A stretch of 64,000 bases of DNA from Lytechinus pictus (lineage: Eukaryota), in NCBI RefSeq assembly GCF_037042905.1, contig NC_087251.1:41418001-41482000 (forward strand), read 5' to 3'. The position numbers and the translations under genes are program-made. The stretch's first letter is position 1. The number at the start of each line of letters is the position of its first letter. Under the pieces are notes generated by a model that was not told where the DNA came from, made no database searches, and worked only from the letters and a program-made list of their open reading frames with translations. Positions 7,962 to 60,300 of this stretch are shown here, one piece after another.

Positions 7962-8268
7962 TGGAAATAATGGGAATTAATAATAATAATAATAATACAC
8001 AGTTCTTGTATAGCGCATATCACAATTATGAATAATGTCTCTATGCGCTTCCAAAGGACTTGGATATTATTACCCCAGCTGTAGCTTGGCAGCCGTAATT
8101 ACTAAGATTACAGCGCACACGCATTTCAAGGAATAAATTCCTGCCAGGTACCCATTCACCTCACCTGGGTTGAGTGCAGCACAATGTGGATAAATTTCTT
8201 GACGAAGGAAATTACGCCATGGCTGGGATTCGAACCCACGACCCTCTGTTTCAAAGTCCGGAGACTAA
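7918..8268 (-). mobile_element. tRNA-derived SINE, 5'-truncated, with expanded (AAT)n tail
   Basis: Near-identical reverse complement of 57816-58128. Confidence 0.9.
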
Positions 8269-13156: not shown

Positions 13157-13246
13157 ATGGATTGGGGTGAAAGTGGTCAAGTGGATGAGCTGGAAAGCAG
13201 CTTCAGCGATCTTGGATTGGAAAGGTCGATCACAAGTGGATTAAAG
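13157..13246 (+). CDS. PPP4R4: PPP4R4 coding exon 1 (MDWGESGQVDELESSFSDLGLERSITSGLK)
   Basis: ATG in ACCATGG context; donor AAG|GTAAGT; 90 nt, phase 0. Confidence 0.9.
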
Positions 13247-19200: not shown

Positions 19201-22200
19201 ACAATCCTGATAATCGATATTAAAGACCAATGACCCTTTAGGACCAACACCTTATGTTGAATGGTATTGATCTGTTCAACTGTCACCTCTTGTTTCAAGG
19301 GCGAGTTCTTTCAAGTGAGACAATCAATTTGCATAATCATCTCATGGTCTGTATTTGATCAAAGAGATGAAAAGAAAATGATGTCAATACACAAGCTTGG
19401 CACATTTGTTGTATTTCACATGCTACATACAAAGATTTGACTTTGTTCCAAACTGACAATATTAAAGGCAGGGACGGATCCTGGATTTTCCAAAGGGGGG
19501 GGGGGGCAAATTTTTATGAGGAAATTAAGGATATTTCATCCCAAAAAAATTTGACAAGCCAAAAAAAGGTCTTCAAGTTCAAAAGAGGGGCACACCTCTG
19601 TTTTCATGGCATTTTTACATTACAAATTTTAATTTTGCTTCTCAAAAAAGGGGGGGGGGGCATGTGCCCCCTGTGCCCCCCTGGATCCACGCCTGATTAA
19701 AGGGGACCCAAAAAAAATCACCATATGAATGTTACATTTAGTTCATATGATTTGATTATTATGATTTATGTCTATCCCTCTTCTACATGGAGTTGGTTTC
19801 TACTTTTGGTATTCCCTAAATTGCCCTAATAAGGTTCATAAGGTAGTATTTATTGTCCAGATAAATAAATAAGTGGAAATTTGCATTTTTACATGGTATT
19901 GAACATACATAACATAGCATAGAAAATGAACATATTTACAGAAAATCAAACAATCACATATAGTCACTTATGATATACACGTGCAAATGCTACCCACTGG
20001 GTAGCATTTGAAAAAATACTGTTATTGACATTAAAATTAAGATTGAAATGGAAATCTGAACTGAAAGTTAGATATCGGAAATTGAATTGAAATTACATTA
20101 GAATTGTAATAAATCAGTACTATAAATCTTCACAGCATTGTCCACTTGTAATTGTTATTGTTATCAGTATTTACATATTATTTTTATTTTCAATTTTGTT
20201 GTTTTAAGGAATTAACATCAACTACCTGACAAGGTAAATTTACATTATTAGGCATATTATTATTCTTACATAATCCCTTCCTCATTCAGCATTCGGATTG
20301 AGCTTGGCACGAATGAGTTTAAGAACCTATTTGTTCGACAACGTGCTGACCGTAGTCTATTACCAGATCTCATCCTTTCGTAGTTTACATTCAATGGGTG
20401 ATCATTATTGTATAGTATTTCTTTTGCCTTTTCAAGTATTCTGTTTCGACATACATCAGTGAGGTTTAGGTCGTGTCCAGTTATTTTTTTCTGCTTGTCT
20501 GACCATTCTACTTAGTATATTCAGATCTTTTTTGCGACAGCTTGTGAACCAAACCACACAATCAAATATGAGGATGCTTTCAATAAGTGATCTATAGAAT
20601 AAAACCATTATGGTGCGGTCAACATGGAATGACTTCAATTTTCTTATGAAATACATCCTTTGTATTGCCTTCTTGTAAATTGAATTGCATTGTTCTCCCC
20701 ATTTTAATCCATCGTCAATAATGGTACCTAAGTATTTGAACTTATGAACTATTTCAATTTCCTCTTCATTGATTCTAACACGACAATCACTTGGTTCTAC
20801 TTGTTTATTATTTCTAAAGTCAAATATCATTTCTCTGGTTTTTGTTGCATTGAGATCTAAGAAATTGTCATTACACCAGTCGGTAAACCATTTTACACAG
20901 TTTAGATACTCAAGTTCACATTCCTTAATTAGACCAACTATAACTGTGTCATCTGCGTATTTGAGAATAGAGACATTTTGAGAAAGGTAACGACAGTCAT
21001 TGGTATATAGAACAAATAGGATTGCAGAGAGCACACAGCCCTGGGGTGAACCTGTATTCGTTACTATGGGATCGCTCAAAGCATCTTGGACGCGCACGCG
21101 CTGGATTCTATTCCGAAGAAAGTCAGTTAGCCATAAAATTAGGGACGGTTTCACATCCAGACATTTCAGCTTCTCGACAAGTCGATGGGGTTGAATAGTG
21201 TTAAATGCGGACGAAAAGTCAACAAACAAAGTGCGAGCGTACGATTTCTTTTCATCTGTGTGCTTGCAGAGAATATGTGTCAAATAAAGAATCGCATCTT
21301 GAACGGACTTCTTTGGCTGATAGGCGTACTGATGGGGGTCAACCAGGTGCTTTATGGGTTGGAGAATATACTTCAGTATAATTCGTTCTAGGCACTTCAT
21401 CGCTATTGAAGTCAATGCTACTGGACGATAGTCGTTATGTTCAGAGGGGCGGGGCTTTTTTGCTACCGGGATAACAATGGAAGACTTCCAGCAAAGGGGT
21501 ATCACTTGTTTATCTAACGACATTTGGAACAAAACGCAAAACGGCAATGCCAGTTCTCTCGAGCAATTACGTAGTACCTTTCCGGTAATTAGATCGGGCC
21601 CGGATGCCTTCCTTGGATTGATTCTATTGAATTGGACTAATACATCTCTTTCTTTAATCTTAACAGTATCATCTCGAGAGTCAGTTAATTCAGCTATCTG
21701 TCCGTCTATTATATCACTGAAGTTATGGGTATCAAACCGTCCGTAGAACCTATTAAGTTCATTTGCAATCTTAAAAGGGTCATCAACATTCGCGAGTGAT
21801 TGATCTCTTTTGGGAACATAGTCGGTCATTGATTGCAAACACTGCCACGCTGCTCGCGGATTATTATTTTGAAAGTGATTTTCGAGCTTTCTTCGGTAGT
21901 CTCGTTTCGCTCTGTTTATTTCCTGACGCAGTCTAGCGTGAAACGACTTTACGGTTAGTCGATCACCGGCATCGAATGCTTCCTTTCTTGCTTTGATGAT
22001 TCCTTTAATATCTTTAGTAATCCAGGGTTTACTATTTGGGTACACCTTAATCGTTTTACTTTGTATATGTAAATCCTGACAAAAGACGATGTAGTCATTA
22101 ACTGCACTTGTAATTTCGTTTATGTCGTCCGAAGCTTCAAAGAACACATTCCAATCAGTTATTTGAAAGCACGTTTTGAGGTTGTCAATTGTTTCATTAT

Positions 22201-25200
22201 TCCACACTTGTACCACTCGTTTCTGTACTTTTTGCGTTTTAAGTTTCTGCCGATATTTTGGTAGCAAGTGTATTACGTTATGATCCGAAAGTCCTATTCC
22301 AGGTCGAATTACGGTCTTATAGGAATCTTTAACAGAACAATAACATCTATCCAATATATTCCCTTCTCGTGTCGGCTTGTCAATTACTTGACAATAGTTC
22401 GGCAACATAGCTTCCAGTCTACAGTGATTAAAATCACCGAGTACAATTTTGGGGGAGTCCCGTGATTCAGCTTCCATCTCCCTAACTTTATTTTGAATAA
22501 GCTGTTCTGCTTCATTTTGATTAGCATCGGGAGCAATGTAGACCAGAAATAAATGAACTTGGGGAAATTCTCTGGGCAAGTAGAACGGGCGAAGTGACAC
22601 ACATAGCATTTCCAGATTTTCGTTGCATATAGAATTTTTAATTGTAAAGTTCGTACACCATCTATCATTTACATAGAGACATATCCCACCACCGCGTCTT
22701 TTCTTGGTTTGTTGAAATGAACGATCCAATCTCGCTACATTAAAACCATCTATTCGTATACAATCGTCATTAATGTCAGGGTTTAGCCATGTCTCTGTAA
22801 AACATATTATACTCGAATTCCGGAAATCATTAATGTAACTTGTTAGGGCTTGAATCTCATCCAGTTTATTGTACAGTGAACGGACGTTGCTTAGTGTAAT
22901 TGCAGGTAATGGGGGTCTGTTTCCCCTTTTCCGAATTCTGTTGCGGATCCCTCCGCGTTTCCCTCTCCGCTTTTGCTGAGGTATGCCATTATCATCCTCG
23001 CGGGTCGGTGTCCATTCTGGGAGATTCAATGGGCTAGACTTGGACGTTGTGTAGTCGGCTAGGTAATACAAGTATTCTCGCGAATACTTGATAGTAGTAG
23101 TCTGTCCGGGTGATGCATATACATGACTATTTTGTGGTAGAACGATTACGAAAAGTAGCACAAAACATACCCAGATGCACGAGATGGATTTGACGAACAT
23201 GATGACATAAACATAACTTCAAAGACAAATCACGAAATCCGGAAAATAAGCGACAAAAACAGAGACAAAATACCATGTAACAGGTCGCCGTAGTACAGCG
23301 CCCTAAGAATGATTTATGTCTATCCCTCTTCTACATGGAGTTGGTTTCTACTTTTGGTATTCCCTAAATTGCCCTAATGTCACTGGCCCACATATGAAAA
23401 TGGAGGTAAAAAAAGGCTTTACCTCCATGATATGAACATATATATCCCGAAACTTGTACATGTATGATGTGGATGATAGAGAATTTCTAGATGCACATGT
23501 ACTGTACAGTGTCTGTTACAATTTTACAGGAATTATCATTTGGCGAGGTGCCATGTCAAAATAAAAGTATGTGAATGTAATTTTTACCAGTATATAAAAC
23601 CACATACAAGTGTGGATTTGGCTGAAAATGTCAGGATGTATTTTCAGGTATACAATCACTATCTCTGTAAGATAAGTGTTCCAAAATGTTTTTATTTTTA
23701 AAAAAGAGAAATAAAAAAACAGTACCAAGAGCTAAAAAGAGCGCTACATAGATATCCAGAAATTCAAAATTCATTTTTTTCTCAAAGAATCAACAGCTTA
23801 AAAGCTATTCAACAGCCACTGCAATGTTATTAAGATTGGAATGCAAGATGAAAGTGAAGAATAATTCACATTGTTGACCATTATGATAACAAAGCTTTAG
23901 ATGGGCTTTCATATTTTGTCACTTTAGAGCACATCCACACAAAGTTAACTACATGTAAATGTTAATCATCTTGTTTTCTTTTACTTTTGGTGAATTTGCA
24001 TTTTCTGTCAGGACCTTTAACACATGATGCAGCTACTTTGAATCGAAATATATTCTCTATCTCAAAGTCTTATATCTACATGTGTTTGTGAAAATCACAA
24101 AGTGCTACTTCATATTAAAGTAAAAACTGTCTTTTTCATGATGATAAAAACATTCACAGACATAGAAAAGTATATGTTGGCTCAGTTGGAATAAACTAAA
24201 TAAATAATCTATAAAATGGAAAAAGGACTGTGATATGTTTGTTGGTAAGGGTTTGGCATTCAAATAGGCAGCTTATCCACACTCAGCATACTTGTTGAAG
24301 CTGGTATAGGGCTTTCTGCGACATCATTGGAGCGTCAAACCCGCCTTTGAAATGACAGCCCCATTGATACTAGGTATTCTCATTGTTCACAATAATCAAT
24401 ACCATCCCATTTCACCTGTAGAAATACAATGCTACTTGACTCTATTCAGATTCTTCATAATCAACTGGAGGTACTTCTTGGATATTAAAGTGTGTGACCT
24501 CATGAAAATAATACCTGGTGGGTGTTTCATAAAGCTGTTCGTAAGTTAAGAGCGACGTTAAGAATGACTGGTCAACCTCTCTTATGCACTATATAATCAC
24601 CAATGAACATTTAATGGTTAATATCATTTACCACAAAAAAGGATCACCAGTCATTCTTTAAGTCACTCTTAACTAACGAATAGCTTTATGAAACAGCCCC
24701 AGATGCAGTCTGAGTGAGAATGAAATGAACATAAATGCCCAACTGAGATGGCAATTTAGATTTATTTTCATCTTTCATGATTGAGACCTTGGTCTCGTAA
24801 AACAAATTGAATCGTACACTTGATTTTTACAATTGATTTTTACGATTGATCATACATTGTAGTCAATGCAATCAATCTTTAAAAAATTGGTTCTACGACC
24901 ATTGCTAAGCTTTGAGTTACGGGCCCCTGGTGCCTGCATGTTTTCTTTAAATATTACAAACATGCTCGTGATCTACAAAAACTGAAACAAAATCCTCCTT
25001 GATATTTCCTGTAATCTTGTCCTTTTCAATTTGGGTATACAGTAAATTAAACTTGCATTTTTATAAGTCAGTATTATATGAGTCAAATATTCACCAAAGT
25101 CGAACCCATTTTGGAGACGAGGGCCCTGTCTTACAAAGAGATGCGATTGATCCGATCGACCAAAACGATAGAAAGCCAGCAACGCCAACATCTCAATGCA

Positions 25201-28200
25201 TGTTTGATCATAATGTTTTATTGTTTTCTAGATCATCGTTGTCTTGACAATTCAGTGCGTTTCTCTGTTTACAGGCGGACATTTTGCAAATTTCCTGTGT
25301 GGCAAATTACATGACATTTATGGATCTCATATTTGAGGTTGATTGGATCAATCACAACTTGTAAGACTGGACCCAGATTATGCACATGTTATTCCTCTTA
25401 AGTTGAATTTCTCCCAAGTCAAACCAATTTTTGTGGTCGTAATAGAGTCAACTCAGACAAAGTTACATGTACTTTGTAGAAAGATGGATACAAACTGATC
25501 TCCTCTACATCAATCTTTTGCTTCTTTTAGGGACATTTAACATTCTATTTGACAAGGACCCTTGAAGTAAAAGAGAGATGTGAAAATTGTGCCTAGTAAT
25601 CAACTTAATTCTTGTCATGTTCTGTCATATATTCTAGAAATACGTTCTGTAGATAAGGTACTGTTCTCTGTGCAATTTTATATATTTCTTCATTTCAATG
25701 CCAGCTTTCATGATATTACCAATTTATAATCATAATAATGGGGATGATGTCTTATTGAATTACAGCTCTGGGCAAGAAGTGCAACGATTAAGTGTCATTC
25801 AGAACCTACCCAACCTCCTAAAGAACAATAATGTTGATGCTATGCGCAGAGTAGTACCCAAAGTCAGGGTAAGTTTAGTAATTGCCGATTGGGGGTTGTT
25901 GTATTTGTGAATGTAGAGTTTTTCTAATCATTACACAAAAACATAATTTACAGGCAAAGGAAATTTGAAATGCTCTTGCTCATGAAAAAGACTATATAAA
26001 CATGTGGCTGTACATGAACATTAGATTGTATAAAATATTGAAAGATAGTAGGCCTATTCATGTAGAGTATAGCAAGCTGTGCATTTTGTTTTAAAAGAAT
26101 GTGAGGAATGCTAAATCTGATTACATGAAGGCCTACATGATCAAACAGGAAATAAATTTTGTTGAAGGCCTGCTATTATGAAGCCGTTATAAAAAATACC
26201 CGCAGCCTTCCAAACTAGGGAACTGCTCCTAGATGCTATTGAAGGTACTGTACGGTATACCAGAGTCTTTGGAACTTACCTGAGAGTGGTACTACAATAT
26301 GTCCATGTTTGTGATTACAACTTTATCAGATAGCAATGTTGGAAAGCAAATATTGGCATTCCATAGAGATATGGTAAGTGTCAAATGGGTGTGATATTAA
26401 GGGAGTGGTATATATATTTGAATGCCTTATTAGATTGATTAGCAATTTAAAGCCGTTTTCAATGTGATGGTTATCAATTCTTTCTATCTGAAATAAATGC
26501 TCTTCTGTATATTAAGGGTGTGTATTGCATCACGTAAAATGCCATTATGATTTACGTTAGTTTGACATTGTTGAGTTGACCCCCCCCCCCCCCGCCAATC
26601 CTTTTTTGGTCTAATTTATGCATTTCTATGATTCCTTTGTAGGATGTATTACACTTAGCGAGCCAAGACCTCCAGGAGGCAGCAGCAGCAGCGTTTGTGA
26701 AGATAGCGGAGGACCAATCAGTGCCACACCTAACCTATGCACAGACATTCCTACAGACGATCTTACAGAATGCTGATAATAGAGACCCAGGTCAGTTTCA
26801 TACAACACAATACAATTGATATCTCCACCATGACTGTTTGACAGCACTTTACAAAGAATCAAATACTCCTAGAGCATTTTGAATGAGGATTAATTATTAA
26901 TGATTTCAGTTGACTTTACTGTTTCTTTCAGAGAAGCCATCATAATTTCCGCTCAATTTATGTTGCATAAAGAGACAAGTTTGGTTTAGAACTGTGAATG
27001 AATTCACTATTGAGTTCTTAAGAATTTCAAAACTTTGTTTTTCAATGCAACCTGAGCTGTATTTGGCAGATAGTTTTTGTATAAATATAAGAAGTTTCCA
27101 CTGTAAATGTAATTTTTATTACATTTATTATTACTTAATACAAACCATCCTGTGTAAAATTATAACAAATATTTTTATGAAACACCACTCAAAACTTTGT
27201 TAACAAATCTAATATCCATAGAGTTGTATTTGAATTAAGATGAATTAAGATGATATTCAGTTTTTAAAATTGACTGCAGTACATAGGGAGTCACTGAGAT
27301 GGTACATGTATGTGTTCTAAAATGATGATTCATTCATCAAAAGAATATTGATTTCATGTGTGAATAGACTTATCTTCTTGAGACGCTATGAGCTTCTGTT
27401 GAATTAGAAAACAGATCAATACCAACACTGTCTACCAACTCCTGTAGAAAACCCAGCGAGTATAAGCTTTGTACACTCATATCAACTGAAATATTTTTTT
27501 GGTTTTACTTTTGTGTAGATACTTTATATTCCTGTGGATTCCACTTAAAAGAATGAAAGACTAAGATTATTAGCGTACACTAATAGTGTTAACAGAATAC
27601 TTGTATTATTATATTTTTATTTGTAGATATTTCTGATTCCTGGTTAGAAGTCTTACTCAACGTCATTACACACCTTCCAAAGGATGTCCTCAAGAAAGAT
27701 GTAAGAAAACAAGATTTTATTCAAACACATTCCCTTAAAATTTGTTGTAAGCTTTACTATACGCTCTGAATTACATGGATTTGAAATAAATCCAGATTGG
27801 CTCTTCAATATTGATCAATCAAACTGTGGATTTGATTTGAATCCTATAAAGATTTATTTTTGAATCTCAAAGGATTTAAATTCAAATCTGTACAGATTGA
27901 ATCTAAATTCAGTATTTAGCCGATCCGGATTTATTTTAGATTCATGAAATTAAAAGTGGATTTGATGACTGCTTTCAGAGGGGGGGGGGGGGCAGAGGTG
28001 TTTCATGAAGCTGTTAGTAAGTTAAGAGCGACTTTAAGAATGACTGGTGATCCTTTCTTACACGCTAAACCATCGTCTATGCACTCTATGAACATTTTGG
28101 TGTATTCAATTTACCGCAAGAAAGAATCACTAGTCATTCTTAAAGTCGCTCTTAACTTACGAACAGCTTTATGAAACACCCACCAGGCATGATGTACAAA

Positions 28201-31200
28201 TGCTTTTGATGGTGGGGTGTTTTAGATAATGCATTGATTGCTAGAGGCTTGATAGAGGAACTAGCCCCTAGGGGCCCTCTTTCATATCCCAAGAACAAGA
28301 TGATAAAAAGTATTAATAGAATGGGCAGTATGCAAATGAGGGATTTGATGATGTGACATGCTTATTATTTCTTTTACATTTTATTTTATGAAATATCAAA
28401 TATTTAACTTTTACTTGATTTGATGACAAGAAGATCTTTGGTAAATCAAAATGAATGATAACGATGACAATTGTAAAAATGTATAGTTCCATGAGGAATC
28501 ACATTAAATTTGTGTGTTTGCTCAGTTGGTAGAGCATCCGTCTTACAACTGGGTTGTCAGGAGTTCAAACCTGGCTGCATCAGACCGTTGAAAGATGGGA
28601 GTTTCTGCTACCCTGTTTGGCGTTCAACGATTAAAGGGATAGAGCCATGTCGATCTGGCGCTGCACAGCGGCTGCCGCGCCCACAATCAATTGGGCTCAG
28701 CAAATTTTCAGAGTATTTCATTTCATGTCTATTTCGGATGATAAAATATGGGTTCTTGGATTCTTTAAACAAATTTTACATTATTAGGGGGAAAATCTGA
28801 GGTATTTCACATTTCTGATAATAAAATATCTAAATAGGGAGTGTGTGACATCATGAGCTTTAATATTTTTTTATATTGCCTATAGATACGATGAATATCA
28901 CTGTTTTTGTGGAAATAAGCAAACGTTATAAAGACCATATAAGTTGTTTTTGTTTTGTCTTTTTTGGTCTTTTTTCAGAACGTATGGAGAAAGTCACATT
29001 ATTCAATATTGTTGCCAATTTGTAAATTACCAAACCTGACAAATTATTTTTTTGTCATTTGATATAAGATTTTACAACAAAAAAGCAAACCTTTTCTGCT
29101 GTGCTTGTAAATCTGATTTTCCCTCTTCCATTATTAAAACTGACTATAACAGGGTGGACTTCCTCCTTGATATGTTACTGCTTCTCCCTTGAGAATTCAC
29201 AAAGGCATCTTGTCCTTGAAATTCTTTGGCTTTCATTTCAAATCCCATTGTACTGTCTGTGTGTGTTCTCCTGCTCAGAATGATTTTTCGTGACACCAAG
29301 TAGTCGCTTGATTTGCATTGATTCCTTCCAGGATGAAGTGCACGAATACTGATAGTTTTTCTTGTCCAGAATAGAATGTTTGTTTTCTGTCTCTCGTGTA
29401 TCAGAATAGAGGAAAAATAAAAACATAACAATTTTTTCAATCGACTGTCACGCCAATGCAAGTGGCAGGTATTTATTTGTATTTTCATGAACCTAGATCT
29501 TTTATGAACCATGAGTGTCTAATCAAGCATTATAAACAAACAAGATAGAAAAAAATATTTCTACAGCAGTACAGTATTTTGCTTTCTAATTATGAGTGGG
29601 TTCATATTTATCTTTTTATGGGCTATGATGAACATGGACATTCCTGTGTGCATTGAAACTCAGCCATTCAAAACCACTATTAGTGATGCTGAAGTCTTAG
29701 ATTTTGACATTGAAAGTGCTTTGTCATAATAAAGATTTATTTATAGGTACACCATGCCGTTTGTGTCACTGTTCCAGGTGTAATATTGATTTTTACTCCT
29801 TTTTTTTTCTTTCGTTTGACATTGATTAAATCGTAATGTGGTACTGAATCCATGAAATGATATGAAAAAAATGAAAAGATGTGATGAAATGTTACATAAA
29901 GTTCTCTTCTAACTGTATACATGTATGTATCATCATTTAAAAGGTGAGAATACTTTAAGATACATATAGGCCTATATAATTATTACATCTTATGAATCTA
30001 ATGTCCTAAAAAAGAAGAAATTACTTTTTTTTATTACAGGACAATCTATTAAGGACAAGTCCACCCCAACAAAAAGCTGATTTGAATAAAAAGAGAAAAA
30101 TCCAAAAAGCATAACATTGAAAATTTCATTAAAATCGGATGTAAAATAAGTAAGTTATGACATTTTGAAATTTAGTTAAATTTCACAAAACGGTTATCTG
30201 CACATCCTGGTGGGTATGCAAATGAGGCAACTGATGACATCATCCATTCACTATTTCTTTTGTATTTTATTAAATGAAATGTAAAATATTCTAATTTTAT
30301 CCTCACTGTCATGTGAAAGGAGATTTATTCCTCCCTGGATATGTGAATTACCATTGTTTTAACATTTTGTGGCTCAGTCAAGTTTGCCATTATAGTCAAA
30401 TTTGTAAAAATTGAAATATTGCATAATTTAAACTTAAAAAAACAAAGAAATAGTGAGTGAGGGACATCGTCGACTATCTCTTTTGCATGACACAAAGTGG
30501 TGCATATAACTATTTGGGAAAAATAAGCGACGCTTCAAAAGTCATAACTTTCTTATGTTACATCCGATTTCGATGAAATTTTCAGCGTTATGCTTGTTGG
30601 ATTTTTCTCTCATTGATTCAAATCGACATTTTTCTGGGGTGGACTTGACCTTTAAATACTGTACTGACCACTGATGAAGCTGCATTGTATAAATAAGACT
30701 TTATCTAAATGATGTATTCCAAATCAATTTTGTTTATGGTCTCTCTGTAGATTCTACCCGTTGCTCTCAGTAAAGGCCAGCTGGCCCAGTCGGTTCAATC
30801 TCGTCTAGCAAGCTGTCGACTGCTGGGAAAGATTGCTACACGTTTTGACACCTTCATGTGAGTCCTTTTTCACTTGCTTCCATTTCATTTGGTGGTTTTA
30901 GACCGCCTCGAAGTTCGTCAGTTCCAGGTATTTTCCGATCAGGAAATTTACCCCGATCAGAAAATAACAGGTAGTACATGTATTGGCAATGTGAAAGCAA
31001 ATTACATGTACGCGTTATCTCCCCGAAAGAAAATACCCACTAAATAGTAGGTACTTGTCATAATTACAAGAACTTTCGCGGGGAACTTTCCAAGGTCGCA
31101 GGTATCTTGGCAATGTGAAAGCAATTTACCGTATTTTTTAGCCCAGCGTGTAGTTTGGCGCGGGCGCCGTGGGTGGCTGCTGAGCTAGTGATTTTGAATC

Positions 31201-37200: not shown

Positions 37201-40200
37201 TTTTTCAGCCGTGTGATGAAATTAATTGACTCATTTATCAAGAATGACTTGAGTGATACCAGCATCTCAGCATGACCCCTACCTGACTGGCCCCTTACTG
37301 CCCATGCTGGGGCTACTGTAAGGAAAACTCTGTCTGGCTCATATTTTAAAGGGGGACATCTTCCATATTTCATATTTCATCATTAGAAATATCATCTGTT
37401 TGTTAATACTGTATCGACCCCTTGCCATGATGATGCAAAATATTGATGTTTTTGGAAAGTGAATTTTGCTTTTGGCTCATTTTACATGTTTACAAAAAGA
37501 TTTTAGATTTAAAGAACCCACAGAATGTTTCATTAACAGAGGACCACCCCTCCCCCTCTGCCCCCTGGACATTGCACCATTTTATAGAAGCTTTTAAATT
37601 TCTACTTTGCTATTGCCATTTATCGGTACCTACTACAATTTTAAATGTGAGAGTGTGAGACATTTTAAATTTTGACAAATGTTGGGAAATGTTGTTTTAG
37701 ATTACGGTACTACGTTTCAATGCAAATAAATATTTCATTTATGTATAGATGTAAGTAAGAACTATACTTTTATGAATATATATAGAATGTATACATGTAT
37801 CATGCTTTACTATTTTAACAATTTATGTTTAATTTCATATTGTCTTCCAGGATCAAGAAGGAAATCTTACCTTTGGTTACATCTCTGTGTCAGGATGTGG
37901 ATTATGAAGTCAGAGCATGTATGTGTAAACAGCTAGATAGTGTGGCAAGAGGATTGGGGTAAGTTCACATCAGGGTATGATTATGAAGTCAGAGAATGTA
38001 TCTGTAAACAGCTACAGTAGATAGTGTGGCTAGAGGTTTGGGGTAAGTTCACATCAGGGTATGATGATTATGAAGTCAGAAAATGTATGTGTAAACATCT
38101 ACATAGTGTGGCTAGAGGATTGGGGTAAGTTCACACCAGGGTATGATGATTATGAAGTCAGAGCATGTATGTGTAAACAGCTAGATAGTGTGGCTAGAGG
38201 ATTGGGGTAAGTTCACATCAGGGTATGATGATTATGAAGTCAGAGCATGTATGTGTAAACAGCTAGATAGTGTGGCTAGAGGATTGGGGTAAGTTCACAT
38301 CAGGGTATGATGATTATGAAGTCAAAGCATGTATGTGTAAACAGCTAGATAGTGTGGCTAGAGGATTGGGGTAAGTTCACACCAGGGTATGATGATTATG
38401 AAGTCAGAGCATGTATGTGTAAACAGCTAGATAGTGTGGCTAGAGGATTGGAGTAAGTTCACATCAGGATATGATGATTATGAAGTCAGAGAATGTATGT
38501 GTAAACAGCTAGATAGTGTGGCTAGAGGATTGGGGTAAGTTCACACCAGGGTATGATGATTATGAAGTCAGAGCATGTATGTGTAAACAGCTAGATAGTG
38601 TGGCTAGAGGATTGGGGTAAGTTCACATCAGGGTATGATGATTATGAAGTCAGAGCATGTATGTGTAAACAGCTAGATAGTGTGGCTAGAGGATTGGGGT
38701 AAGTTCACATCAGGGTATGATGATTATGAAGTCAGAGCATGTATGTGTAAACAGCTAGATAGTGTGGCTAGAGGATTGGGGTAAGTTCACATCAGGGTAT
38801 GATGATTATGAAGTCAGAGCATGTATGTGTAAACAGCTAGATAGTGTGGCTAGAGGATTGGGGTAAGTTCACATCAGGGTATGATGATTATGAAGTCAGA
38901 GCATGTATGTGTAAACAGCTAGATAGTGTGGCTAGAGGATTGGGGTAAGTTCACATCAGGATATGATGACTATGAAGTCATATGTGTAAACAGCTAGATA
39001 GTGTGGCCAGAGGATTGGGGTAAGTTCACATCAGGGTATGATGAATATGAAGTCATGTGTGTAAACAGCTAGATAGTGTGGCGAGAGGATGGGGTAAGTT
39101 CATGTCAGGTATGATGATTATGAAGTCATATGTGTAAACAGCTAGATAGTGTGGCTACAGGATTTGGGAAAGTTCACATCACTGAGGGCATGATATAATT
39201 TTATTACCAATGTTACAAGTTTGATATTTCTTTCTCTCTTGATATCACTTTGAGAAAGTTATTGAATATTAAACATGGGAATGTTGTTTGGCCCAAATAG
39301 ATCAGTCAGTTTTCCTTACATACTCTGTTGCAATAAAACTATGGGAAACTGGAAATTTGCCAATGTTTGGATTCGTTATCCTTTATGCAGGTGAGAAAAT
39401 CCTGTGCTCTAAATTAATGAAATTCATAAATAATGTAATATTATTGATGATTAAGTATAGTTTTACCACTTGGTTAAGTTGATATCAAGCTATCGTATCA
39501 GTATCCACATAGCAAAAGCTAGACCAAGTGTCTGGAGAGTAGTTGCAGTGCTGGACTTTGTCATCTTTGACATTCATCTGTATATTGGCATGTTTCTACA
39601 AAAATACATAGGATTGACATTAATACATTATATATTTTTTCTCGATTTCTTCATGAAGCCTGGAGCCTACCAGAAGTGCAATACTACCTGAACTTGTTGA
39701 ACTGGGCAAGGATGAAGAGAGCTGTGTAAGACTAGCAGCATTAGAAACTATAGTTAGCTTACTCAGTCTTCTAGACGATGGTGAGTCGTGTCATTTTATC
39801 ATCTCTTAAAGCCAGTCAGGTTCATAGGCCTTTACATAGAGTACGATCCTTTAACCCTTAACTGGTAATATGTTATGTGCGTGGTGAGTGTCGTAGGTCT
39901 ATTTCACTGAACATGGTCTCATTTAGTGAGATAGTAGATGCATAGAATATAGTCAGAATTGTAGTCTTAGACACCCATGTTCTCTTATTGAAGTAATTAC
40001 TGTGGTTTTTTTTAATCACTTTTGATAAAAACATTTGTATTGGATCAATTTTGGCTGAAAAAAAATAAATTTTAGTCTTTGCATAGGTTCAGAATTTTGG
40101 TGGAAAAAATGCAATTTATTAGAAAAGGAATCCAATCCAAGGTTGGTAATAAATAGATCAGTGTGAAAGGAGAAAAATAATTACTCTTAAATTGATTTGC

Positions 40201-46200: not shown

Positions 46201-49200
46201 ATATCTTAGGGGAAATTCTCATAAGAAATGGCCTTGCAAAAGTAATCACATTGATTCGTCTTTAAAGATTTTATATCTAGTAGGACCGAGCATCAATATT
46301 CTTGAAGTAAATTGTGATTATTTCACCATATTTGGGGGGGGGGGATGGTACTAAAGCGGAGGATGAAAGTTGTATTCATCTTTATTTCATTTAATATCCA
46401 CTTAGTCTTACACCTTTCAATCTATGTGGTTATATAATTATACTGTTTATTAACCAACTTTTTATTTGACATAGTACAAAATGATTAAGGAGATGAAGTG
46501 GAAATAAGACCATCTAGACATTGCACTGAATCGAAATTTGGTATCAGACCGAGTGAAGACCAAATGGCAATTAGACCAGCCCAGACTTAGACCAAATGGG
46601 TAATAGCTATTACTCTAGCTGAGAAGTATGCATGTACCAAATGCTTTTATACAAAGTGAGAATAGAGACTTATGAAATGGTCAAGTAGGTATCACCTTGA
46701 CTAGTACGAATTGGATTGAATGACAAACAGTTCACTATACGGTAGTGCAAGATTGTTGTCACTTTCGCTCGGAGCAACCATATTACTACACAAAGATGCC
46801 TGGATGGTATGGAGTTGCTAGGCATTCTAGACAAACACAATACAAGAGGGCTACTCTTTGACATCATTGTTCAAAATCATTAGTGATGAAGGGGAAATAT
46901 TGCCTGCTCTGTAGAAGAGATGGTGATTATGCGTTTCTGGCACAAAGCCGGTGTTTGTGATTGATTTAAAGGCAGAGTCCAAAGTAATTAAGAAATACAA
47001 AGAACCCATTCAAGATTGATAACGATGATATTCAGGGCTTTAATTAATAAAAACTGAAAGTGTTTGTAAAATTGTTATCACTAATGTGTGTCTTTGTTAT
47101 TCCTTTCTGTAGTTTATATCGAATGATACAAGTTTATTGCAGTGTGAAGTTCCATGTAGTAATTTTGTGCACTGATCTCATTCTGAACATATTTCACAGT
47201 TGACTTATTTCCAAGGAGAGATATCAATAAGTGTGAAAGTTTATTTGATGAATAATTTACACATTGCAGTTGACGGTCGACCTTCCATGAAAATAATAAT
47301 TCCTTCCTTTTAATCTCACGCACCAATGCCTGTACTTTTTATTATTTTTTATACCGATTTCAGCTTTAGAAAATGCGTGATCCCTAGTTATATTCTTTCC
47401 TGATATTGCCCGATTTAACATAAATTCCAAACTCTATGCACATTAACAAAGATTTTCTTCCATTAAAGGCCTTTGAAGTGTTTTTTTTTTTTTGTGTTGT
47501 TTTCTTGACTTTAGTTATTAAATTATTTTGGGTGCTTATTTCATTGGAAAATACATCAGTATTGATGCCCATGAAAGTACACTCATAGAGATTAAAGTAA
47601 AAGCGCCTCATGGAAGATTTCGATTACCAAAAATAAATCTCAACAATTCCTGCGTCTTCATCGGTACTGTATATGATATGTATACCACAATACTCTAGTT
47701 CCCTGCATCCATTTAACATTTAAACACCATCATCATTTTTCACTTAAAAATTATCTACTGCATTTATATTCGTACAGATCTGATTGTCGCTTACCGGCAT
47801 ATTTTTTTTTCAAAGCTTTTTAGGTGATTTATGAGAAAAGTACCGGTACTCTTTCTTTTTTTCTTTTCAACCTTTGTTTACTTCAGATGAAAAAAAAACA
47901 ACCTGAGAATTATTACAGACTGCAACTATTAACTGTGCATGTTCAATATAGAATACTCTTTTGTACTCAACTACCCATACAATGAAACTAGATCATGAAT
48001 AGCTCTATGGCATAGAAAAAATGCAAATCTAAAAAGTAATGAAATTGAATCATTAAAAAATAAAGAAGACTTCTGTGACCATGGGAAAGGGTGTCTAGCA
48101 GAGTTGTAAGCGTGCCAATATTGATAGAGTGTATAGTAATATTTGTGAGACTACATTTATACATATTATCTTATCCTTGTCTGTGATTCAGTTCAATTCA
48201 TAATCATACTTTGTAATACATTTCCAGTCTCCTGTTTTGCATGGGTTTTCTACAGTCATTATTCAGAAATATGATTTGCATGTGATGTTATCATTAATGA
48301 TGCAATGTATTAATTTTGTATTTGTTATGATGCACTACACTAAACCTTTTTTAGTTCTCAATTGAGCATTTTTATATTCTTCTGCTTTCCAATAACTAAC
48401 AACAACAGAAGAAACTTTCAAAAAATTATTTGGTTAATGTAATATTTATTGTTGTCATTGTAATGTTTATTGTTGTTATTGTCATGTTTATTTGAGTAAT
48501 GGAGAGTTTTTTGTTTTTTTACATTTTCTATTATTGTTTCTTGTATTTTGGTTTTTCTTTTAACGTGGGATAGTAATTTGCTTTCGTATCTCACTCTGCC
48601 AAGGAAATCATGTGAATGAAATCTTGAGCTCACTCAAATGAAAATTAAATTTGTTAAAATGATCTTTTTTTCTTCATTTTAGATACCTGCACACAGACGA
48701 TCATTCCTTTAGTTCGTAAATTTTGTGAGAATGCCATGAACAATGAAGATTCTACCCTACCCTCTGTTGCTAAGCAGTTCGGAAGGTTATGCCATGGGTT
48801 GTCAGGTGAGAAAACAAAGCAACTCACTCAGCTTTCTTAAAGGGGAATCCAACCCAAATAAAAACTTGTTTTTATAAGGAAAAGAAAAATCAGACAAGTT
48901 GATAGGTGAAAGTTTGAACAATTTTGGACAAACAACAAGAAAGTTATACATTTTTAAAAGTTGTAAATATTGGTAATCACTATACCCATGGAGACTTCAA
49001 ATTGGCCGCATATGGGATGGCATAGTGATGTAAGGCAAGGACTACTCTTCCATGTACTCCAATACATATTATGGCTAAAATGTCATTTTCCCCAAAAGTT
49101 TTATTTCAAATTATATTTTTCTATCATGAGGACATAAAATAATATACTACCTGGGTTATATTTAGATTACTGCCCCAGGGGAATGGGTACTTAGGAGAAA

Positions 49201-52200
49201 ACCACAAATCCCTGATAATAAAGTGCATGGCCTATGGGAAAGTTGTCCTTGCCCCTTGTCATAATTTACTTACCCAGTTACCAATTTGAAATCTACATAG
49301 TATTAGTGATCTCAATTTTAAAGCAGCTATAACTTTCTTATTGCTTGACCGATTTCTTTCAAACTTTCACCATTCTGTTTAAATTATTTTTCTTCTTCCC
49401 AACACAACATTTTATGGCCAAGGCTGGATTCCCCTTTAAGGGGGTTTCTAACTGAGCAGTGAATGATTGCGAACATAGTGAATTTCAGATTTTGCCAGGG
49501 TTCGTAAAAGGTTGCAAAAGTTTTGTAAAAGTGTTGCAAGAAAGCTTGTAAACAGTGTTCATTGTTGCAAACAGTTTTTCTTGTTGCAAAGAAATATTGA
49601 ACCAGTTCAAAAATGTCTTAGCGAATCTATTAGATGGCATCACTGAAGTTCTTTTTCATTTGCCTATATGCTAGCGACCCCATGACCATATATGGTTCTT
49701 GTATTAAGTCGACCCACAGAGATAAAAATTGCATCGAATGTTTGAAAACTTTTAATTGTTCATTTCAAAACAGTTCGCAAAGCAATTTTGATGTCCCAAA
49801 AGAACATTCATAAGCATTTGCAACACTAATCAGGAAACTTTGCTAATCCAAATATTGCAACATTCGTAAGCATTTGCTGCTCAGTGAGATACCCCCTCTT
49901 AAATGCTCATACTTGCTTCTGAAAAGTCAAGGTTTTTGTCTTCAGTCATCATGCGGTGTGCGGTATGCGGTGTCTTGTACATATTTGATTCTATATACTT
50001 TGCCAATCAGAAGATTCAGTAAGTTTGATATTAATTTGATTTTTCATTGCAGTTTGAATAGAATGTATTCATGTATGTTAAAAGTAAATTCTTGTATTTC
50101 CCCTTTTCACTTAATGTAGTAAATCTTACAGAAGAATTAAAACTTTGGTTCATGAAGTATTACTACAAGCTGTGTTCTTTAGGGCTGAATGAGAAAAGCA
50201 TCAGCAATGATAGATTGGTGAGTTTATTTAGTTTTCTCTTAAAAAACTGAAATTATCTTTTATTTTGTTGTGAATATTCCCTTTATAATTGTTTTAAATT
50301 TATTCAATCTCCCAAAAGTGTAATAATTATAATGCTTCATTTAAGTAATTCTGATACATAAATTTGGAATAAATTGCAGAGTAGAAGCATACCACAGCTT
50401 TGACTTCAATTCTTCTACTCTTTGGAGCTAATGGCTACAATGAACATTGGAGCATTCCATAAAGATTTTTCTCTGTGATTTTCACCCACGTATGTTGAAA
50501 GTTACTGAAAATCCCTTCACCTGATTGGCTAAGAGCAAATTAGTCAGTGAAGATCACTGATAAAACTCTTCATGAGGTGCTCCTCTGAAGGTATCTTCAA
50601 GAAAGACATCATTATCCACAGACTTCACCCATGAGAGCAATTACTTGCTTGTAATTTAATGGTGTAGAGCAATTAAGCTAAGTTTATGACTCTCTGTAAG
50701 ATGCTAATTGGAATGTGAAAGTACCCTTGATGCCTGTTTACACTGAGAATGAGCTCCCGTGGGAGGAGTTTGTTGTGTAATTAATTTCATTCTTTGTGAT
50801 GAGGTTGGGTTGCTAACGGTGATGAAATAGACAGGAAATTATAAGTAATCTCATATTGAACTCCTGTGACTTCTTCTTGATAAAACTTATTAGTTCTTGG
50901 ATTTGATAAAAGGCTATGGGGCTGCCTGCTCTTGCTTCTACTATAACTTTTTTTTTCTTTATTGAGGTTTTAAAGTAATTTCAGTAAGGGTAATCTTATA
51001 AATATTTGTGTTTCTACCTATCAAGTTTCCTTTTTGATTTAGGAAAGAGTGATTGGAGGATATTAATCTGGTGAAATAGAGGGTCAGGGGTGGGGGCTGA
51101 GGGTGCTTCAGCCCCCTCACCTTGTTCAGTATAAAATATGCGCGAAAACATAAAACTATTTGTTTGCATGTCATCTCCCAATAATCAAAACCTTTATTGG
51201 CCTCTGCAGTAGGACTTACAAATGTGCTGAGTTCGATATCCGCAAGTTTTAACCATTATTTTATCTACATGTACAAACCAGTGCCCTGGCCTTGGATGTC
51301 GGTATTTATTCATTCACATGTATTTGCGAATGATGAAGATTTGGCTCTTTATTGTGTTATCCCCATTCTGTTTTGACCTTTCTATTTAAGTCACAACCAC
51401 TATAACAATATAATGACTTAATAAGGTTATATATCATAACCTTTCATTAAGTTGAAAGGATAGGACCATTAGAGATGGTATAAGAATGATATGTTTTGTG
51501 GTATTTTGCTTAGGAGCAGTCAGGTGCATCATCTAATAGCTCCACTAAGGTGACTATTACTTAGATGGTGTGATATTAACAAACTCTCTTTGCTGTGATG
51601 GGATGCTGCTTAATATATATTTTCCTACTAATAACTATCCTGTCTGTTTTCATAATTCTCACCATGCCCCATTTTTCTCAGATATATACATATCGTTGTG
51701 TACGTTTATACTGTTTCTGATTTAATTGCAGTGTTTTTTTTAATACATCATTTAATTCTCTGTCTAAATTTGTGTCAAATTCATAAATTTACTTCTTTTT
51801 TATATTATCAATAAGTTTTAGATAACCTATTTGATCAGACATGACCAATGAATTTAAGGAAATTAAAGGCAGTTGCAATTTGTGCTTCCTATTTGCATGT
51901 AAGCTGTAATTGCTCCCTGAATGAGTATGTCTATTGACACGGTGAATCTTATATTACCATATCAATCCATTTACTTGACTCCCTATAATACCGTAGTCTT
52001 CTTGTTGATGTTAGATCTCAATAGGAACTAGTCAATCTTGTTGAGTGTCACCATGTAAGATCTGTAGGGGAAGGCGGGGTAAGTTGAGCATAGGGGCAAG
52101 TTGAGCCACCACCCCCAGGCCAATAATGAATGAGTCAGACATTATGGCAGTGTCATGTATTGATGACCCATTACATAACCCTTAACCCCACCACATTTTT

Positions 52201-55200
52201 TTCAACTTTGAAACAAAAAGTACTTTTTAGAGGGAAAAATACAAATTTCAGCCAAAAAGGTAAAAAAGGGTGTTTTTTACACACAGACGTCTTTACATAT
52301 AACAAGACATAAGAACAACATTGTCAGTCCAGGTATGGATCTTCATTCTTGTCACAGTCTTTTACATGATGGATGCATAAGAAATGTGTGGACGCGAAAT
52401 TATCGCATTAAGTTCGGACTGGGGTAAGTTGAGCCATGGTAATTCTTATGGTAATGTAAATAAAAAAACAATCAAACCTTAAAAAGCCATCGATATGCAG
52501 GCAGAAAAGAGCAAATTCACATGGCAGTTCTTTACTTTTAGAGAATGTTAGTATTTATAGAGAATTAGCAAGTGAAAAGACTTTAAATAAAAAATTGACA
52601 TGCTGGTTCTACCCGCATACATGTGGCTCAACTTACCCTAGAAGGTGGCACAACTTACCCCACAGATGGGGCAAGTTGTGCAACTTGACATCGTTTTTTT
52701 CAAAGGTCACAACGACTTTCAGGGTGGGGGTAGAACGTTGTATATAGGTGAAAAAGATTTCCCAATAATCATATTTAAAGGCAAGGTACTTATTTCTACA
52801 ATATTATTAGTCATATCAATTCTATCATGCAAAATGCAAAAAGTGTCACAACTTACCCCGCCTTCCCCTATAGAGCAAGGCTTTTAAGGGCTTGGTATAT
52901 CTGTTTCTTTAAGGGGCAATCACACATCATCGGTTTAGATGGTGGTTCTTTGCAGTTTGCCTGAAAAGTTTGATGCAATCAGACCCCCTTTACAACAGAG
53001 TTTGCCCATTTTGGTTTCAATAGGTTACGACACGGTGTGTATTGCTTTGTTAAGCAAGCATAATTGAAAGAAATGTGAAATGTTGTAACCAACTCAAAGC
53101 AAATTGGCCTTATGGGCTCTAAATCTAATTGCATTCAGTTTTCAGGGACAAACTGTAATGAACCCGCATCTAAAGGAGTGAAGTGCGATTGCCTATTCAC
53201 AGTGACTTGATAAATAATGCTGACTACCAAACAACCTTTATAACAAAAGACCAACATACTATACAAGTCCTCTACACCATTCAACCATTATTAAAGGACA
53301 AGTCCACCTGAACAAAAAGTTGATTTGAATAAAACGAGAAAAATCCAACAAGCATAACACTGAAAATGTCATCAAAATCTGATGTAAAATAAGAAAGTTA
53401 TGACATTCTAAAGTTTTGCTTAATTTCACAAAACAGTTATATGCACATCCTGTTCGTTATGCAAATGAGGGCAGGGGGTGATGACATTCACTCACTATTA
53501 TGTATTTTATTGTATGAAATATGACATATTCAAATTTTCTCCCCGTTGTCCTATGAAACAAATGTTTATTCCTCCCTGAACATGTGGTACTACCATTATT
53601 TTAACATTATATGGTTCAGTCAAGTTGGGCCTTATAGTCAAATCTGTAAAAATTAGAATATTGTATAATTCAAACAATAAAAATAAAAGAAATAGTGAGT
53701 GAGGGACATCATCCACTCTCTCATTTGCATGTCACTGAGTTGTTCATATTAAACTGTTTTGTGAAAAATAAGCGAAACTTTAAATTGTTGTAACTTTCTT
53801 ATTTTACATCCGACTTTGATGAAATTTTCAGTGTTATGCGCGTGTGATTTTTCTCTATTGATTAAAATCAACATTTTTCTGGGGTGGACTTGACCTTTAA
53901 ATACGTGGTATATTGCTGGATGATTGTTCTTGGAGCTATGTAGGTTAGGTTCAATAATGGGGATGTACTTCATGAAACAAGATGACGTTCATGGATGATT
54001 TTGCCCTGAACCAATCAGATGCAATGATTTCAGTAGCTTATAACAAGTTGCCTGAGAAAATCACAGACTATTTTGTCCGTGAAATGCTTCCCAGGGTATT
54101 TGACACCACAAGGTCACTCGTGTAATCTTTCAAGGTTAGGTGGTTATGATACACTTGGGTGATTCTTAGTATGGTACAGTTTTTGATCTGTAATGCAACT
54201 TGTGTCACATAAAAATATGTAGCACAAATGCTTGAACTGTGATGTCACAAAGGGAGAGAAGTTAGATACCCTCTGTACTTTGCCTTATTGCATCTCTCTA
54301 AAATCTAAAATCACTTCATAATGTGATATGAAGGTAGCTGTGAGAATTTGCATGCAACCAGGAAAATGGCTTGTCAAAAGAGTTGTGCTATAAATTCCAC
54401 TCGAAAATAAATATACTTTTGATGACCCTGGAGCCTTGAATCTGGTTGTTTGGTGATATTAAAGAGTATGATTTTATTTTGTTAAACATAAAGTTGTATC
54501 TCTGAGCTTGAATTTTACCCAATTTATCTATAACTCGCGTCAAATATTGTAATTAAGACTCGAACTAAACTTACGGATGTAAGATTTTATTTTAACAAAT
54601 TGAAGTTTGTGATATAAAAAATGATAATAATAATAATATACTGATCATTCTTAGGTTGAGGAGTTAATTTGCTATTAATGTGTACATGAACTTGTAGTTC
54701 AGACTATGATATGTTTTAAATCATATGATTTTACTTTTCATTTGAAAGAATGTTATTTTGAAGATGTTAGTTTATATTTTATATGACTTGCCCATCATTT
54801 ATGCAGTAATATGTTGTTTTTTCGATAAAAAGTAGATAATTACTCTGATGGACTCTATATTCTATAATCATCTCATTTATTAATTTTATTTACTGCTAGA
54901 GTTTTAAGTTACAGTATGCTGCATTTCAGCTACAGTTGTAAACATAAAGGTGATTAGGGCTGCATTTATGCTACGTCAAGTGCGAATCACAAACATGAAT
55001 CATAATTTAAAAACACCAACCTTAATCATGGTAACTGCAGAATCAGTTTTAATAGTTTATCCTCTCTCCAACACTGTTTCTCACTTCAGGCCTAGCCAAT
55101 GCACCTCATAGTTTGACCCATAAATTATATGTCAAATTCAATGCAGGTTTCAATATTGCAAAAGATACACAACATTGATTGCCAATACATGTGTGTGGCT

Positions 55201-57352: not shown

Positions 57353-60300
57353 GGCCTACTGTGTGTCTAAGAAAACAAGGAAACCCAATAACAGAGATGA
57401 CTATCACAGGCATTGAATATGCTTTGATGGAAAATTTTTACCCTAATAGAGAGATGTGAGACCAAGTACTTAGTGAATCGTTCACACATGACAGATTACA
57501 TGCGTTAAACACTGAGGCATGTCAAAATAATTTGCACAGAAACACAATTCAATCTACTCTCATTCCGACATTAGTGACAGAAACTTACAATGTATACAAG
57601 GAAAATGCTAGCATCCCTTTTTTATGCCATGTCATTGAATTTACCTAACAAATCTTTCCCTAACTTTTTGTGCAACTTGGTTTTGACAAAATTTTAAACT
57701 GGCTGTGCTCATCAATGTGGGAGTCTTTCATATTGTATTTGGAATCAAAATAAAGAAGAAAAAAATCATAAATTTATGACGAAAATTTGAAAAAACATGA
57801 ATCACTTGCAAACGTGTGGAGCGCTGTGGCCCAGTGGATCAGTCTCCGAACTTTGAAACAGAGGGTCGTGGGTTCAAATCCCAGCCATGGCGTAATTTCC
57901 TTCGGCAAGAAATTTATCCACATTGTGCTGCACTCAACCCAGGTGAGGCGAATGGGTACCTAGCAGGAATTTATTCCTTGAAATGCGTGTGCGCTGTAAT
58001 CTTAGTAATTACGGCAGCCAAGCTACAGCTGGGGTAATAATATCCAAGTCCTTTGGAAGCGCATAGAGACATTATTCATAATTGTGATATGCGCTATACA
58101 AGAACTGTTTATTATTATTATTATTATTAAACGTTAGAAAAAATAAGCGGCAATTCTGGTTTCTCTTTTTTCTGGGAAGCACTGTATATCATCAGGGAAT
58201 AATTTTCTTGGTATCATGTTGCAGTTTGCTGTGCATTCTTGTTATGATTGCTACACAAAGTTTCTTTTATGTAAACAGCAGGTTTTGACATGGGACTGTA
58301 CACAATTTTGAATTTTTGTTCTCAATTCACCCAAACTGTTAATTAAATTTTGACAATCATAAATTTTCCTGGATATCATACATCCACGTATTAACCTTCA
58401 CACATTAGATCTAAATCAGCAATCAATCACATCTGTGGATGTTGCTTTTTATTAAAAGAATAGAAGCAAAGAGTTGGTTTGTATACTGGTATTGTCTTTG
58501 CTTCTTGTTTATGTTGCTTTATTATTATTTTGTAATGTAATTTGCAACTTGGAAGTCATTGAAACATATATCAACAAAAACTATGGTTTAACTTCTTTTT
58601 TATTCATGAATGTAAAAAAAAAGGCCTCCTGTATTGATGTATGTCAGTGAAGCTCAGTTAATCATTCTTTCTTATTGTAAATATACAAAAAAAAGGACGA
58701 GACCGGTATTTTTCTTTCAGGTTCGTCACTAATGCATCTTTCAATGGAGTATACTGTAATAGAAGATTTCTTCATATTCAATCCTGAAAAAGAAATTTAT
58801 TTTTGGTGTGTTTTATTTACAGGTTGCTCATCTCTTAGGAAACAATGTATCTTGTATTCATGGAGAGCTGGTTAGTCTACTCAAAGATGAAAATCTACAG
58901 GTATAGTAGTAGTATTATCAATCATGGGGGGGGGGGGGGGCATTGATGTACTTAATTCAAATTTGATGATAAAATCTACATCTTCACATCTATTCTAGGG
59001 AGAGAAAAGAGCAGTTGCACAGTTAAATATGTTTTAAGTTGCTTTATAACATTGTTACGATTTTCCCAGTTTTATTTATGAAATATTTTGCTGTTTTTTT
59101 TATTTCTTTTTATAGGTATTCTAATTTGTTTTTGCTTATGCAAATCTTCTTGCACAAGTCGTATTGTTTATATGTTGCTTTTAGAATATATGACACATCT
59201 TTTTTAAGTAACATGGATAAGCTTCTCCTTTAGCAATAAATGTATATTGGAGTATATTATTGAAGCCAAAACTCAGGGGCTCAGTTTTAAGGCGAGCGAG
59301 AGCGATTGCTTGCCTAAACGTAAACGATCGCTTAACAAGAGTGTCAGTCAATGATCAAACTGTTAGAACCAACCTTGAAAACTTCTCAATCAAGGTTTTA
59401 GAAATAACACACAATTACATTTTAGCAATAACACACATTGCAAGAATGACATTAAAAAGTTCATTAAGATCAATATTGCATATATCTGATTGTTTGTATC
59501 TTTTGGTTGTGGGTTCCTCCATTCATTTTGTGATTGGACAAAAGAACTCCCCTTGTATGTCCAAAAAGATCTTTTCGTAGTGCTCCTCTACCACTCTCCT
59601 TAAACGTTTTAGTAGACCTTTTTATTGCTCCCCTCATAATTATAAAACTGAGTCTCTGGACTTTAAAACTCTTCATATAAGTGTTCCCATGTATAAGATG
59701 AATATAATTTGTCTTACAAAGTGATCTACCGTGAACCCTCTACATTGATTAATTCTATGCCTTTGAAACCTTCAAAAGTTATTTCATAATTTGCTGTTTT
59801 CAGGTTTTACAGGGTATTACATCTCACCTCCCTGAGACTTTGGTAACATTCTCTAAAGGAGCACTAAGCAGTAGTGGTCATCATCTCGATAATAAGGTAA
59901 GAGAAAGACTTCCTTTTCATTGCAATGTTAGTAATTGTAATAAGAAATGATGTTGTTAAAGCTTTACACAGCCTTAGAAACTCCCCCACTCATATTATAA
60001 TGTTAAGATGATTTATATTGCTCTGCAGTGGGCCTATATAAATCTTTACTATTGTAAACTAAATTAATCTCCAATATATTTTTTTATCAAACCTTAAAAA
60101 AATACTATTCAAGTAGTATTTCATGAAAGATGTATGTTATGATAATTGTAGATAAATTTTGTATGACAATGCATTTAATTTTTTTTCTCTATATGAACTA
60201 AAACTGCATGTATATTGTCAGAGTGTTTTGTTAAATTTTGAAAGCAGGTCACAAAATAACAGCAAATGATTACCGGTAATGTGCATTATATCTCCCCATC

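Follow-up and report, generated by a model that had tools for sequence, protein, structure and literature searches.

A donor-spanning minisatellite at the exon 7-intron 7 boundary of sea urchin PPP4R4, probably tolerated and removed with the intron

Intronic tandem repeats that carry copies of a 5′ splice site are known from several human genes, and the sections of the report by Borensztajn et al. 2006 used here (PMC1557585) place the 37-bp VNTR of F7 intron 7, CBS intron 13, lamin B2 (100 bp repeated 10-15 times), PDGF intron 4 (81 bp repeated 16-18 times) and the interferon-inducible gene 6-16 in this donor-repeating class. F7, lamin B2 and PDGF splice from the first donor only, whereas CBS and 6-16 use two pseudo-sites as well (PMC1557585). 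In F7 minigenes the downstream sites are functional yet unused, the next intact site takes over once the first is mutated, and constructs with 1 to 12 units all make the same choice of the first donor only (PMC1557585). The amphioxus mirages, for which the excerpts used cover Adh3, the globins BflGb6 and BflGb9, troponin C and PGBD5, are tandem duplications of an exon-intron boundary that keep their splice signals, combine concerted evolution of the centre with excluded edges, and yield normal mRNA (PMC3087553, PMC3902484). The 25-bp VNTR of ABCA7 intron 18 starts at a donor and repeats it, with the second donor leading to an out-of-frame product (De Roeck et al. 2018, PMC5954066), and latent 5′ splice sites, known from work on suppression of splicing, are intronic donors that lie behind an in-frame stop and are normally silent (PMC3510495, PMC1524910).

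The locus described here is a head-to-tail array of minisatellite-size units in PPP4R4, located in a window of 64,000 nt (the whole stretch of Lytechinus pictus DNA that was analysed). It resembles the F7 class in that the boundary between exon and intron falls inside the first unit, intronic copies of the donor follow and the first donor is the one used, and it is close to PDGF in both unit length and copy number (PMC1557585). Each F7 unit contains 4 exon nt, compared with 59 in the echinoderm array; two F7 pseudo-sites have no in-frame stop before them, whereas all downstream donors in PPP4R4 follow one; and donor choice in F7 rests on minigenes, whereas the PPP4R4 array is known from sequence and contigs (PMC1557585). 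All of the amphioxus features given above recur in PPP4R4, the differences being that the host is a sea urchin and that the array is seen in two diverged lineages (PMC3087553). The array likewise shares the listed properties of the ABCA7 repeat and of latent sites, although the ABCA7 unit starts at GT with no exon part, an effect of length is shown in ABCA7 only (PMC5954066), and latent sites are scattered single sites rather than exact copies of a true donor with its exon context (PMC3510495). The PPP4R4 array is an ordinary example of a repeat class already known from human and amphioxus genes, and as the reason why the first donor wins has already been tested on the same arrangement in F7 (2006, PMC1557585, in the sections used), it matters little by itself. 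What it adds is an echinoderm case common to two diverged lineages, an apparent turnover of unit types and a readable duplication breakpoint, together with one test locus for first-donor preference outside mammals and under stress. A literature search covering few subscription journals found no publication on an echinoderm mirage or on this PPP4R4 locus.

The host gene is well defined by comparison with sea urchin proteins. A search with the exon 8 peptide matched 45 proteins, with sea urchin PPP4R4 models at the top at 100%, and tblastn combined with boundary reading places 17 coding exons between 13157 and 63970, with GT at every donor and AG at every acceptor. These form one stop-free frame of 580 residues, which contains HEAT repeats. 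Its identity to Lytechinus pictus models is 99.8-100%, compared with 99.0% for L. variegatus and 93.6% for Strongylocentrotus purpuratus. An earlier interpretation made from the sequence alone (hereafter the sequence-only reading) had named the gene PPP4R4 and the repeated exon its exon 7, and both were right, with tblastn and the exon model placing the exon seventh of the 17. Exon 7 ends inside unit 1, and the first unit therefore spans the real exon-intron boundary (Table 1). Among the 32 PPP4R4 junctions examined on the + strand (the exon 17 donor, which lies too close to the end of the window, was left out), nearby copies are confined to the exon 7 donor; the exon 14 donor has a copy score of 22, equal to the best shuffle, a result expected once in 32 tests. 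A donor falls within about 2% of 82-nt windows in this region. Exon 7 also holds the motif CTTACC (37866-37871), the complement of the donor sequence GGTAAG, which could pair with any donor copy. The acceptor of exon 8 (39656-39659) is AAG, compared with CAG or TAG for all other acceptors listed, and the first base of exon 8 is T in the transcript of organism B (run X5) but C in the window.

Table 1. Positions of the array, its parts and the flanking PPP4R4 features within the window
Feature	Coordinates	Strand	Evidence
PPP4R4 coding exon 7, 108 nt, phase 2-2; its last 59 nt (37900-37958) start unit 1	37851..37958	+	tblastn, 36/36 identical to Lytechinus models; exon model; X1 and X5 contigs
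Exon-side breakpoint region, imperfect match to intron 37970-37981 (common TCAGG and GAT)	37890..37902	+	read from sequence
16-unit minisatellite, consensus 82 nt (59 nt of exon 7 end plus 23 nt of intron 7 start)	37900..39181	+	repeat finding, unit splitting
Authentic intron 7 donor, GGG/GTAAGT	37959..37964	+	X1 and X5 loose ends past 37958 are the exon 8 start
Units 2-3, diverged copies at the 5′ edge (8 and 5 differences from consensus), with intact donors at 38043 and 38125	37979..38147	+	
Units 4-13, homogenised core, 0-2 differences, 6 identical; a donor each 82 nt, 38207 to 38945	38148..38967	+	
Units 14-16, short type (7-nt deletion); donors 39020 and 39094 intact, 39168 dead (GA); short type also in organism B	38968..39181	+	
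Unique rest of intron 7 (intron total 1700 nt); AATAAA at 39332, second polyadenylation-type hexamer at 39268, AAG acceptor	39182..39658	+	X3 contig exits last unit into sequence at 39194
PPP4R4 coding exon 8 (122 nt, phase 2-1), frame-shifting if skipped	39659..39780	+	

The array stands out from all other repeats in the window. Tandem Repeats Finder gives it a period of 82, 15.9 copies, 94% matches and a score of 2162, compared with 156 for the next-best array elsewhere. Splitting into units confirms the count of 16 copies, 14 extra GTAAGT donors and a GAAAGT in copy 16 that had been read from the letters: GTAAGT is present at 15 of the 16 donor positions (37959 to 39094), including 14 of the 15 intronic copies, and GAAAGT is at 39168. 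Unit 1 measures 79 nt and unit 2 87 nt (with a 5-nt insertion), units 3-13, which make up 11 of the 16, are all 82 nt long, and at the 3′ edge unit 14 has 75 nt, unit 15 has 73 nt and unit 16 is partial, with a 7-nt deletion common to all three. Differences from the consensus number 0-2 in units 4-13 and 5-21 in units 2, 3, 14, 15 and 16, which bears out the earlier description of homogenised central copies and decayed edges. Units 4, 5, 9, 10, 11 and 12 are identical to one another, 10 of the 16 units bear distinguishing variants, and some variants are common to non-adjacent units (units 3, 6 and 8; 7 and 13; 2, 3 and 8). Unit 7 carries an A at donor position -1. A second donor-like GTATGA, reported earlier for most units, is found in 13 of the 16, and the GCT noted in most copies in place of the exonic GCA is present in 13 of the 15 intronic copies, with GCC in unit 14 and GCG in unit 15. 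The GCA of copy 1 is a candidate marker that could assign junction reads to this copy in a matched animal. As to the composition of the unit, the proposed exon-end part (59 nt) stands, but the tail 'GGTATGAT' is not a third ingredient: it is native intron 7 sequence, since an X3 contig runs on from the last unit into unique intron sequence, and the unit is therefore a single contiguous exon-plus-intron piece.

Donor choice in the transcripts was followed in assembled contigs, with 4 of the 24 listed runs compared over 37400-38010, an interval that takes in exon 7, unit 1 and the first part of unit 2. In both transcript-type runs, X1 from organism A and X5 from organism B, a single contig covers exactly 37851-37958, unbroken, with exon 6 before it and exon 8 behind it, the loose ends being placed at the exon 6 end at 30828 and the exon 8 start at 39659. 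Neither run has another contig over 37400-38010 or any on the intron part of the unit, with the qualification that assembled contigs drop rare isoforms. As the X1 and X5 contigs are unbroken and no contig lies over the intron part of the unit, the main PPP4R4 mRNA form uses donor 1, joining 37958 to exon 8. All Lytechinus, Strongylocentrotus and Diadema protein models examined contain the plain exon 7-exon 8 peptide once, with no insert. No stop-bearing isoform, whether array- or intron-bearing, is seen among the X1 and X5 contigs over 37400-38010, a type of data that cannot show absence. Each of the two exon 7 contigs has one mismatch, which lies at most about 30 nt from an exon end and may be the GCA/GCT site. 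The share of the words of 37700-39900 found in the listed runs is highest in X1 (0.18); shares of 0.09-0.11, close to the 0.113 of distinct words expected from exons 7 and 8 by themselves, were set aside as evidence.

Use of the downstream donors would have a clear coding consequence. Translation confirms the in-frame TAA that had been noticed past donor 1, at 37960-37962, which is codon 236 of about 1020. From the exon 7 acceptor, donors 2-15 would produce exons of 192 to 1243 nt (192 and 274 nt for donors 2 and 3), all stopping at this TAA. By the usual rule such transcripts would be substrates of nonsense-mediated decay (NMD). The wider claim of the sequence-only reading, that any downstream donor gives a stop, holds for exon 7's own acceptor and would not extend to internal AGs, where 39 of 129 AG-to-next-donor pairs would be in frame. 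The 129 internal AGs examined have 4-9 pyrimidines among the 16 upstream positions, compared with 11-15 at 15 of the 16 true acceptors and 9 at the remaining one. The in-frame cassette candidates, of 45 nt in 10 units, have 6 of 16, compared with 9-15 at true acceptors. A tandem cluster of cassette exons was rejected on this lack of an acceptor pyrimidine tract and on the variants in the exon-derived part of the copies, of which 4 are silent and 10 are replacement changes, with two frameshifting indels in addition.

The substitutions relative to the consensus (n = 27) offer a test, of low power, for selection on the donor copies. The donor hexamer has 1 substitution compared with 1.98 expected (P = 0.40), the region from -3 to +6 has 3 compared with 2.96 expected, and conservation of the donor signals above the neutral expectation is thus not seen in these 27 changes. 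In this weak test the donors appear neither kept nor purged, and no coding use is visible among the array copies. A special RNA fold was sought in 37851-38290, which covers the first five units, and none was found relative to shuffles (z = -0.02); masking of the extra donors by RNA structure was rejected for this region on the same value.

The array is also present in a second organism. Runs X3 and X14, from two studies of organism B, have 47 and 27 contigs on 37400-38010; both are classed as DNA by a tool that guesses run type, and the contigs of both traverse introns. In intron 6, X14 differs from the window at 23 of 166 letters and X3, over about 210, at 19 letters with a further 12 gap positions, and organism B is therefore a diverged relative. 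Both runs contain joints that go back from 37981 or 37986 to 37920, which is how units of the short type, represented in the window by units 14-16, are joined, and X14 also has a full-length unit with a unit tail before it. Depth on single contigs reaches 491 in X14 (22.5 in the flank) and 301 in X3 (11.5-44.6 in the flank), where contig depth is no copy count and a summed depth over the unit of up to 5180 was not read as copies. One X3 contig leads from the unit into the unique intron sequence found at window position 39194. With the tandem junctions recurring in both runs and the passage into the unique intron seen in X3, the array is real and shared: it occupies the same site in organism B, with both unit types present. 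As the contigs of organism B mostly begin at 37917-37924, there is a hint that the short unit type is commoner there than in the window, where 13 of the 16 units are of the long type.

The sequence around the first junction suggests how the array may have arisen. The imperfect homology between the exon-side breakpoint region and the intron (Table 1) is the likely seed of the first duplication, in which a stretch of 79 nt from mid-exon 7 to intron position +23 would have been duplicated at this short exon/intron match. The junction of units 1 and 2 has the shared GAT once, as in a duplication joined by microhomology, and the 82-nt units have one more GAT, the gain of which would account for their length. 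Unequal exchange or conversion may then have kept the central units alike while the edges decayed, a process that fits the variants common to non-adjacent units. The array would have been in place before the lineage of the window split from that of organism B. In splicing, the exon 7 acceptor would pair with the nearest donor to define the 108-nt exon, and as the other donors lack a preceding acceptor that has a pyrimidine tract, the entire array would leave with intron 7. A rare slip to donor 2 or 3 is predicted to take in the TAA and to be removed by NMD; such removal would hide the cost of slips and could allow the array to persist.

Taken together, the data point to a donor-spanning intronic minisatellite, a mirage of the F7 type, that is tolerated and removed with intron 7 (probability roughly 0.8). 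This reading draws on the first-donor precedent of F7, lamin B2 and PDGF and on the indifference of F7 to copy number, as given in the sections used (PMC1557585), and on the amphioxus mirages, in which the centre is likewise homogenised, the edges are excluded and splicing is normal (PMC3087553). The neutral minisatellite that the sequence-only reading kept as its fallback fits best, with 1 change in the donor hexamer compared with 2.0 expected and no coding constraint in the copies. Against it stand an RNA basis of two assembled contigs from 2 of the 24 listed runs, with NMD able to hide products, and the persistence of the array across lineages with the 23/166 difference in intron 6, which neutrality allows but does not predict. 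A further point against it is that CBS and interferon-inducible 6-16, two of the five human genes cited, use their two nearest pseudo-donors (PMC1557585). This precedent would also suit an array of neutral origin that leaks, with unselected loss of PPP4R4 transcripts through donors 2-3 or exon 8 skipping growing with array length or stress, a reading considered unlikely. The donor-starting VNTR of ABCA7 does produce an isoform that retains one unit, and both lower expression and skipping of the following exon go with VNTR length (PMC5954066), while heat shock activates latent donors preceded by stops in human cells (PMC3510495). In PPP4R4 itself, donors 2-6 and 8-15 match donor 1 from -3 to +8 and none near the exon is inactivated, and the AAG acceptor of exon 8 combined with the frame shift on its loss makes exon 8 skipping a route worth testing. 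Such a leak is opposed by X1 and X5, neither of which has a contig over 37400-38010 that includes array or intron sequence, by a cryptic-donor isoform in ABCA7 that is unchanged with VNTR length (PMC5954066), and by F7, in which the downstream sites were unused in 50 extra clones per construct (PMC1557585, in the sections used).

A selected role for the array, in which copy number tunes PPP4R4 through NMD or a U1 snRNP sink or the donors shield intronic polyadenylation hexamers, would be in line with its presence in a diverged relative, with the 14 intact donors among the 15 extra ones and with an AATAAA 150 nt behind the array, but is very improbable. Donor positions mutate at the rate of the remaining unit, and the window and organism B seem to combine the unit types in different proportions. 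Over 49.5 kb of the gene outside the array there are 18 GTAAGT hexamers, of which 5 are true donors and 13 are not, so that 14 more are a small change; moreover, U1 is the most abundant snRNP, which also counts against a sink. The copy-number-tunable U1 sink or NMD rheostat put forward by the sequence-only reading thus finds no support, as the only contigs that bear on it, those of X1 and X5, splice at donor 1 and the donor hexamer is not spared by mutation in the test of low power. An assembly artefact, with the repeat absent or much shorter in the animal, could be argued from the listed runs, none of which contains half of the words of 37700-39900, and from the figure of 16 units, which is the count in the assembly. 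It is nevertheless as improbable as a selected role, given the distinguishing variants in 10 of the 16 units, the go-back joints and both unit types in two organism B runs from different studies, the X14 depth relative to its flank, and the X3 exit into the same unique intron. A more specific proposal, that the array is a length-variable dial for PPP4R4 kept across species, in which longer alleles give more use of donors 2-3 or more exon 8 skipping, chiefly under heat stress, and so more NMD, is quite doubtful. If length did tune PPP4R4, it would follow that mirages can be regulatory, and a true dial would make the array a natural splicing-QTL minisatellite of a laboratory sea urchin and give mirages their first demonstrated function.

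Other features of the gene and its introns include an in-frame exon of 36 nt (51514-51549) that is missing from some Lytechinus isoforms, with model P0060 aligning over 568 of the 580 residues, and that is probably an alternative micro-exon. One set of L. pictus models (P0007, P0055) aligns only from about residue 81, in exon 3, onward, and exons 1-2 of the window (region 13157-25868) encode an intact N-terminus that matches other models (P0046); the discrepancy reflects either an alternative start or an annotation gap. Intron 2 contains, on the - strand, an unbroken frame of 920 residues (20456-23218, within 19761-23378) with matches to endonuclease, reverse transcriptase and ALKBH8_N, apparently an intact LINE-type element. 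The element is flanked by a perfect direct repeat of 70 nt (19761-19830 and 23309-23378), which is unusually long for a target-site duplication. A MITE-like family with long terminal inverted repeats has several intron copies (30048-30610, 53291-53900, 12247-12303 and 48837-49437), and an element of 293 nt occurs twice in opposite orientation, at 7977-8269 and 57838-58130, with the two copies 97% identical and 49.6 kb apart.
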